A DNA stretch of 64,000 nucleotides from Escherichia coli (GTDB lineage Bacteria; Pseudomonadota; Gammaproteobacteria; Enterobacterales; Enterobacteriaceae), in assembly GCF_046105845.1 (NCBI RefSeq), contig NZ_CP151004.1. One strand, given 5' to 3'. A model generated the notes under the pieces. That model saw only the letters and a program-made list of their open reading frames with translations, ran no database searches and was not told where the DNA came from. Position 1 is the first letter of the stretch, and every line of letters starts with the position of its first letter. This document shows positions 24,801-60,900 of the stretch, in pieces. The translations under genes and the position numbers were made by a program.

Positions 24801-25004
24801 TTTTTGCCTAAAATCCATAAGGAGATAAAAAAATCTGACACAAGATAAGCAAAAGTGATTTATGTGATTATGCATGAAATTTCGGTAATTTTGATTGATT
24901 ATGCAGTTGATAAAAGCAGGCCGGGACGATTGATCCAGGTCATCGCCGAATTGGGCTAAAAATGGCAGGCTTTGGCCTCTTTTCAAGGCGCGGTCTATCA
25001 GATT

Positions 25005-44145: not shown

Positions 44146-44373
44146 CTTTCCTCACTCCTTAAGTTAGTCGCTTTCATTCAGAACACTTCTTCTGTCGAGC
44201 ATCACTATACTCCTGATGGCCTATTGTTCTAAAAAGTTCCTGTAAAGAGTGTGAATATTCAGAATATATAAAGATACATACACTGGTTTTTCAGGCGTTA
44301 TTGCGCTGAATAAGTGTTTTTATGGAACATATTGGAATCATCCCGCGCACTGCGCGGGATGAGGGGGAGGGGA

Positions 44374-58926: not shown

Positions 58927-60285
<1,359 letters not shown>

Positions 60286-60321
60286 TTAATTAACTGATGA
60301 TGAGCCTGGATTTCCGCTCTC

Positions 60322-60359
60322 ACTGAATTTTTATGCAAAATAAATGAGTTTTCATTTAA
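60322..60359. promoter_or_regulatory. Tandem ARG boxes (ArgR operator) upstream of argG
   Basis: actgaatttttatgcaaa and aatgagttttcattt, 50-90 nt upstream of argG start; resemble the TGAAT-AT-rich-ATTCA ARG box palindrome. Confidence 0.6.
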
Positions 60360-60617
60360 TCATCTTTTATCGGAGACAGGAAGAGTTTAGTGTGTTTTTT
60401 GTAAAATAATGCGCTTAAGGGAGAGCAGGAGAAGGCAAAAGTATTCAACAAATGAAAGTGAACTGGATATTCATTCACGTGATTAGCAATAAACGTTGAC
60501 AAAATGTGGCATGGATCACTATAATGCCTGCAGATTTTACGTCCCGTCTCGGTACACCAAATCCCAGCAGTATTTGCATTTTTTACCCAAAACGAGTAGA
60601 ATTTGCCACGTTTCAGG

Positions 60618-60694
<77 letters not shown>

Positions 60695-60817
60695 CTTTCC
60701 CTTAGAGTCCTTTTTCAAATATACTGTGAAGACTTCGGCCTTCGTAGTGGGATTTGAAAAAATCCTTCTGGAAAGTGCTCCAGACCGCAGTTGCGGTTAT
60801 AGGGTTCAGTTATATAA

Positions 60818-60843
60818 AGCCCCGATTTATCGGGGTTTTTTGT
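60818..60843 (+). terminator. Partial terminator between metY and rimP
   Basis: agccccga/tcggggtt hairpin followed by T-run. Confidence 0.7.
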
Positions 60844-60900
60844 TATCTGACTACAGAATAACTGGGCTTTAGGCCCTTTTTTTATGTCTTGGGGGTGGGC

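Follow-up and report, generated by a model that had tools for sequence, protein, structure and literature searches.

Tandem ARG boxes upstream of argG in Escherichia coli: an ArgR operator conserved across enteric genera

The argG operator among described arginine operators

In E. coli, the canonical arginine operator is composed of two 18-bp ARG boxes separated by a 3-bp spacer, to which one ArgR hexamer binds on one face of the helix (PMC6245113, PMC6640053, PMC4381063). At biosynthetic genes, the ARG boxes lie across the −10 and/or −35 elements of the promoters, from which RNA polymerase is excluded sterically (PMC6640053, PMC6245113), and according to the Charlier laboratory ArgR does little to block polymerase that is already elongating (PMC6640053). 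Regarding argG itself, its promoter is repressed by ArgR and arginine and serves, together with argR, as an arginine-repressible reporter (PMC8851469). A single CRP site serves metY-argG (PMC3105977), and the part of PMC3017606 that cites Krin et al. 2003 describes ArgR and cAMP-CAP as acting in the argG-metY control region. A paper on Klebsiella (PMC12219000) discusses argG mutants and not the argG boxes.

We analyzed a stretch of 64 kb (hereafter the window), of which the region around the operator belongs to the E. coli chromosome: a 701-bp query covering 60100–60800 matched 5425 of the 5426 complete E. coli genomes, with 100% identity to several O157 and O145 strains, and the features annotated beneath its matches were argG (argininosuccinate synthase) and tRNA-Met. 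The regulated gene, argG, is an ORF of 447 amino acids on the minus strand (60270..58927, ATG at 60270), which is annotated as such in at least 5,421 E. coli genomes and corresponds to b3172 of K-12. It is separated by an intergenic region of 347 bp with 37% GC, which contains the operator, from the divergent metY, the initiator tRNA-Met (tRNA-fMet) with anticodon CAT (60618..60694, plus strand; identified by ARAGORN, Rfam tRNA and RefSeq annotation). metY is followed by rimP, nusA and infB in the same order as in K-12. The metY promoter, TTGACA and TATAAT with an 18-bp spacer (12/12 matches; 60496..60525, plus strand), is directed away from argG, and both of its hexamers are conserved across genera in an alignment of 14 genera. 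Downstream of metY, the Rfam rimP leader was found at 60783–60883 (RF01770; 102 bits, E = 4e-18), overlapping terminator-like hairpins at 60816–60839 and 60864–60876. Over the operator, Rfam gave no known structured RNA, the only ones nearby being the tRNA and the rimP leader.

The operator occupies 60322–60360, which, read in argG orientation, is 52–90 nt upstream of the ATG and thus in the control region of a member of the arginine regulon. The locus is that of the argG operator of K-12, where the 39-mer is identical (NC_000913.3, 3318547–3318585), so that there is no difference within the operator. Read on the argG-sense strand as the reverse complement, the arrangement ATTAAATGAAAACTCATT-TAT-TTTGCATAAAAATTCAGT corresponds to the argG ARG-box pair reportedly given in the Maas 1994 review. 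The primary work on this operator is reportedly that of Charlier et al. 1992 (J Mol Biol 226:367) and of Krin et al. 2003 (J Bacteriol 185:3139).

The operators of carAB P2, argF, argI, argA, argD, argECBH, artJ and artP share with argG the two imperfect 18-bp palindromes and the 3-bp spacer, as well as the combination of one strong and one weaker box; their overlap with the core promoter is predicted for argG as well. Repression at these canonical operators is exerted by hexameric arginine-bound ArgR, as is proposed at argG. On the other hand, at G4 the distal box of argG carries TAAAT where the consensus has TGAAT, a departure that is invariant across genera, and, unlike the other operators, that of argG is accompanied by extra single boxes farther upstream and lies in a control region that also contains the divergent metY promoter and a CRP site. 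The site upstream of gltBDF is likewise a tandem pair at 21-bp spacing and is located in the same window (24869–24907); however, it lies approximately 320–360 bp upstream of the start site without occluding the promoter (PMC1784095), whereas at argG the operator and the predicted core promoter overlap.

Box architecture and matrix scores

A preliminary description had pointed to two AT-rich, palindrome-like 18-mers upstream of argG at 60322–60359 (ACTGAATTTTTATGCAAAATAAATGAGTTTTCATTTAA) as fitting the ArgR operator pattern. Both 18-mers are present and AT-rich (78% and 83% AT), and their palindromic character is imperfect, with 4 of 9 self-complementary pairs in each; the placement upstream of argG is likewise correct. 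Regarding the coordinates, the start at 60322 stood, but the end was one base short of the true end at 60360, and the 2-bp spacer that it implied was wrong: the 2-bp-spacer register (60342–60359) scored −14.3 bits versus +13.0 bits for 60343–60360. The operator of 39 bp is thus built of a box at 60322–60339, a 3-bp spacer (ATA) at 60340–60342 and a box at 60343–60360, which is the canonical arrangement of arginine operators, and it forms a sharp phylogenetic footprint in 20 species.

The promoter-proximal box (60322..60339, minus strand; TTTGCATAAAAATTCAGT in argG sense, ACTGAATTTTTATGCAAA on the plus strand) has a single mismatch to the consensus WNTGAATWWWWATTCANW, and with the matrix derived de novo (see below) it scored 19.4 bits, ranking first among the 63,983 positions of the window. 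All of the 20 species compared have its core, TTGCATAA..AT.CA, unchanged. The spacer (60340..60342, minus strand) reads TAT on the argG-sense strand and gives the boxes a centre-to-centre distance of 21 bp, i.e. two helical turns; it is TAT in 17 of the 20 species and AAT in the other 3, and its length of 3 bp is kept in all of them. The promoter-distal box (60343..60360, minus strand; ATTAAATGAAAACTCATT in argG sense) is more degenerate, with 3 mismatches to the same consensus, and is a weak match of 13.0 bits (rank 4 of 63,983), but it is conserved in 20 of 20 species with its non-consensus bases included.

The matrix was trained on the upstream regions of nine other members of the K-12 arginine regulon (carA, argF, argA, argR, argD, argE/C, argI, artJ and artP), from which argG was left out in order to avoid circularity. 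A MEME-like EM procedure for a palindromic 18-mer, run with no prior consensus, converged on AATGAATATATATTCATT, and this motif found box pairs 21 bp apart in 6 of the 9 regions (carA, argF, argA, argD, argE/C and argI). A scan of this kind had been suggested in the preliminary description as a check, and the argG-free matrix gave the argG pair the best tandem score of the whole window (32.4 bits at offset 21). At offsets of 20 and 22 bp, pairs involving these argG boxes all scored 9.0 bits or less, and the best pairs anywhere in the window reached 8.0 and 14.4 bits, respectively. When the window was shuffled 200 times with its dinucleotides preserved, a score of 32.4 bits was never attained (maximum 22.8 bits). 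Since the intergenic region is AT-rich, local simulations matching its own first-order composition were also performed, and none of 5000 such first-order Markov sequences attained the score (maximum 27.5 bits). A simple consensus search allowing up to 3 mismatches, by comparison, was unenriched in the window (10 matches versus 6.1 expected).

The second-best tandem of the window, with 23.9 bits, was the one at 24869–24907, approximately 540–580 nt upstream of the gltB ATG. In the gltBDF control region, an ArgR site has been footprinted with DNase I at −361 to −318 from the start site, farther upstream than the Lrp sites (Paul et al. 2007, PMC1784095), and the position of the gltB tandem fits this site, indicating that the matrix recovers another proven operator and thus providing a positive control. 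The two ArgR operators known in the window, argG and gltB, are therefore the top two tandem matches of the matrix. A further, weak tandem ARG-box-like match of 18.1 bits (AGAGTGTGAATATTCAGA ata TATAAAGATACATACACT) was observed at 44246–44284 in the ispB-sfsB intergenic region; this one may be due to chance, as its score is below the shuffle maximum of 22.8 bits.

Of the six highest single-box scores in the whole window, four belong to the argG-metY intergenic region (60322, 60462, 60343 and 60398); the local simulations produced three or more boxes of 13 bits or above in 0.02% of cases. In addition to the two boxes of the operator, the four comprise a single auxiliary box at 60462..60479 (ACTGGATATTCATTCACG; 13.5 bits, rank 3 in the window), which lies between the operator and the metY promoter at 17 bp from the −35 element of the latter, and a weak ARG-box-like match at 60398..60415 (TTTGTAAAATAATGCGCT; 11.2 bits, rank 6 in the window), which possibly reflects chance in an A/T tract. 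Neither showed positional conservation in other genera. The window strain and K-12 have only two differences in the intergenic region. One of them, at 60479, affects the final position of the auxiliary box, where the window has G and K-12 has A, which would score higher; the other, at 60511, falls in the central spacer of a CRP-like site at 60505..60520 (TGTGGCATGGATCACT), which is situated within the 18-bp spacer of the metY promoter. This CRP-like site is the sole intergenic match with two or fewer mismatches, but such matches are unenriched window-wide, so that by itself it is weak sequence evidence. The presence of a CRP-like site and an auxiliary box near the metY promoter fits the published action of ArgR and one CRP site on both divergent promoters.

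Conservation of the operator and its flank

Within E. coli, the 131-bp segment around the operator was found in 5424 of 5426 complete genomes, in 5185 of them with at least 99% identity. For comparison across species, loci were collected with the ArgG protein as a query and one genome per species, which returned 80 loci. A tandem with a 3-bp spacer was present upstream of argG, without gaps, in 19 further species (22–34 bits), consisting of 14 Enterobacteriaceae, Pectobacterium, Brenneria, two Dickeya and Tolumonas; the genera bearing it include Citrobacter, Pluralibacter, Kluyvera, Phytobacter, Superficieibacter, Shimwellia and several Enterobacter. The order of a weak distal and a strong proximal box is common to all 19. 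In controls from Burkholderiales and Neisseria, whose ArgG is approximately 80% identical, the tandem was absent (approximately 5 bits or less), and it was likewise absent from Acinetobacter controls (approximately 5 bits or less).

In the 14-genus alignment, the block AAAAGATGATTAAATGAAAACTCATTTATTTTGCATAA appears as a near-invariant island between flanks that cannot be aligned, and it is intact in spite of a distance to the ATG that ranges from 87 to 309 nt among species. A constant block at a variable distance from the ATG is what is expected of a promoter-operator unit. Within the boxes, the invariant positions are the sequence-specific ones of the ARG box (TG at 3–4, CA at 15–16, AT at 6–7 and 12–13), and the columns that vary among species are those to which the matrix assigns little information (Spearman rho −0.53, p about 0.001, a descriptive value as the species are related). 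Similarly, the substitutions observed among these related species cost 0.7 bits on average versus 2.8 bits for a random in-box substitution. The compared species share kinship, and these conservation statistics are accordingly not drawn from independent samples.

Conservation is not confined to the boxes but reaches approximately 25 bp beyond them, upstream of the distal box. Directly adjacent to the distal box is the flank AAAAGATG (60361..60368, minus strand), possibly an A-tract of UP-like character or else the TG belonging to an extended −10 element, of which 7 of 8 positions are invariant in the 14-genus alignment; in the ungapped alignment of 20 species, its last three bases (ATG) alone are identical in all and the others are at least 90% conserved. 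Farther upstream lies the conserved element CTCTTCCTGTC (60374..60384, minus strand), which reads CTCTTCCnGTC across species and is kept at a fixed distance from the boxes. Both AAAAGATG and CTCTTCCnGTC stand in exact register with the operator across Enterobacteriaceae and Pectobacteriaceae. Since conservation runs past the boxes, part of it reflects something besides ArgR contacts. Promoter or UP-element constraints would be the simplest explanation of the conserved flank and of the invariant non-consensus bases. It is also conceivable, though rather improbable in our estimation, that the flank block is an undescribed control element of argG, which would be either the UP element or extended −10 element of a second promoter (TG-n-TTAAAT) or the site of a further regulator.

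Several lineages deviated from the common arrangement. In Yersinia artesiana and Acerihabitans, there was no ARG box of at least 8.5 bits within 500 bp upstream of argG, and Rahnella (loci L030/L031) had two strong boxes overlapping at a 10-bp offset with no 21-bp tandem; control of argG is perhaps organized differently in these three lineages. Four species (loci L015, L017, L020 and L022) carried a conserved insert of approximately 30–50 bp (…ATCATCATGGCGTGGCTGTTAAGTCTCTCACCAT…) in the argG leader between the boxes and the ATG, which is missing from E. coli. A mini-ORF of 12 codons was found in the insert of one species and was not conserved in another, suggesting that the insert is probably not coding. 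Kluyvera had a strong third ARG box (TTTGAATAAAAATGCATG, 18 bits) 135 nt upstream of argG and 46 bp upstream of the distal box, near the place of the weak E. coli match at 60398..60415 but in a different register, and far stronger than anything at the equivalent place of E. coli. The CRP place was a near-perfect palindrome in Kluyvera, and none was seen in Citrobacter.

Promoter overlap and alternative readings

A strict promoter consensus scan found no minus-strand promoter at the argG operator. With softer sigma-70 scoring over 20 species, every good candidate fell inside the operator, and the promoter was weak by consensus. The top score, both in E. coli and on average over the 20 species, was given by ATGAAA and AAAAAT with a 17-bp spacer; we therefore predict a −35 element in the distal box (ATGAAA, 60350..60355, minus strand) and a −10 element in the proximal box (AAAAAT, 60327..60332, minus strand), which would imply a start near 60320. 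Alternative candidates are the extended −10 TG-a-TTAAAT (60362–60354, minus strand) and the −10 TATTTT (60342–60337, minus strand), both of which overlap the operator. A combination located downstream of the boxes, −10 GGAAAT (60315–60310) with −35 TTGCAT, was rejected, as it was unconserved and scored poorly. The supplementary data of Mendoza-Vargas 2009 have no argG entry. Because the promoter is weak by consensus, which of its elements are overlapped by the operator is a matter of prediction, with ATGAAA/AAAAAT as the best putative pair. Since all predicted candidates are inside the operator, steric occlusion would hold whichever of them is real, in line with the overlap rule for the ARG boxes of biosynthetic genes.

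Taken together with the published work, 60322–60360 is almost certainly the operator through which ArgR acts on the argG promoter in E. coli, where arginine-loaded ArgR would repress by promoter occlusion. The present analysis observed the match to the ARG box together with its spacing, its statistical excess, its location upstream of argG and its conservation, and ArgR binding and arginine-dependent repression at argG are as reported in the literature. With arginine in ample supply, a single ArgR hexamer loaded with it would bind both boxes cooperatively; with the argG core promoter covered by the boxes, RNA polymerase would be excluded and synthesis of argininosuccinate synthase would drop. 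When arginine is scarce, ArgR would leave and argG would be transcribed.

The reading that best survives beside this one, although we consider it very unlikely, is that the conserved block is just the argG core promoter with a UP-like element, its resemblance to ARG boxes being a by-product of AT-richness and control by ArgR being located elsewhere or lacking. It draws on the promoter candidates inside the block, on the conservation that runs past the boxes into AAAAGATG and CTCTTCCnGTC, and on the invariant non-consensus bases of the distal box, which imply a second constraint besides ArgR. However, AT-richness did not generate the 32.4-bit tandem at the exact 21-bp offset in any of the 5000 composition-matched simulations, the variation between species tracks the information profile of the ARG box, and repression of the argG promoter by ArgR is stated in the literature (PMC8851469). 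Moreover, the roles of promoter and operator are compatible, their overlap being the expected design (PMC6640053).

It is even less probable, to the point of being negligible, that the main binder is another AT-preferring protein such as Lrp, IHF, Fis or H-NS, with the ARG-box match being secondary. The region is AT-rich (37% GC), and at artP and gltBDF Lrp and ArgR do have targets in common or compete for them (PMC1784095, PMC6640053), but no specific motif for any of the four proteins was evident, the invariant positions are exactly the sequence-specific ones of the ARG box, and nucleoid proteins need neither the ARG-box pattern nor an exact 21-bp repeat. A functionless chance resemblance in AT-rich intergenic DNA, for which only the non-significant consensus search (10 versus 6.1) could be invoked, is effectively refuted, with hardly any likelihood left to it, by a tandem score that neither the 200 shuffles nor the 5000 local simulations reached and by gapless conservation across 20 species between flanks too divergent to be aligned.

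The ArgR operator of argG is thus an already known and ordinary one, a textbook site in a classic member of the arginine regulon, and its significance beyond annotation is little, with no new question opened by it. If the conserved flank were the site of a further regulator, it would couple argG to the distant CRP site and metY. What the present check documents is the sharp conservation of the operator across enteric genera and the recovery of both the argG and the gltB sites by the matrix.
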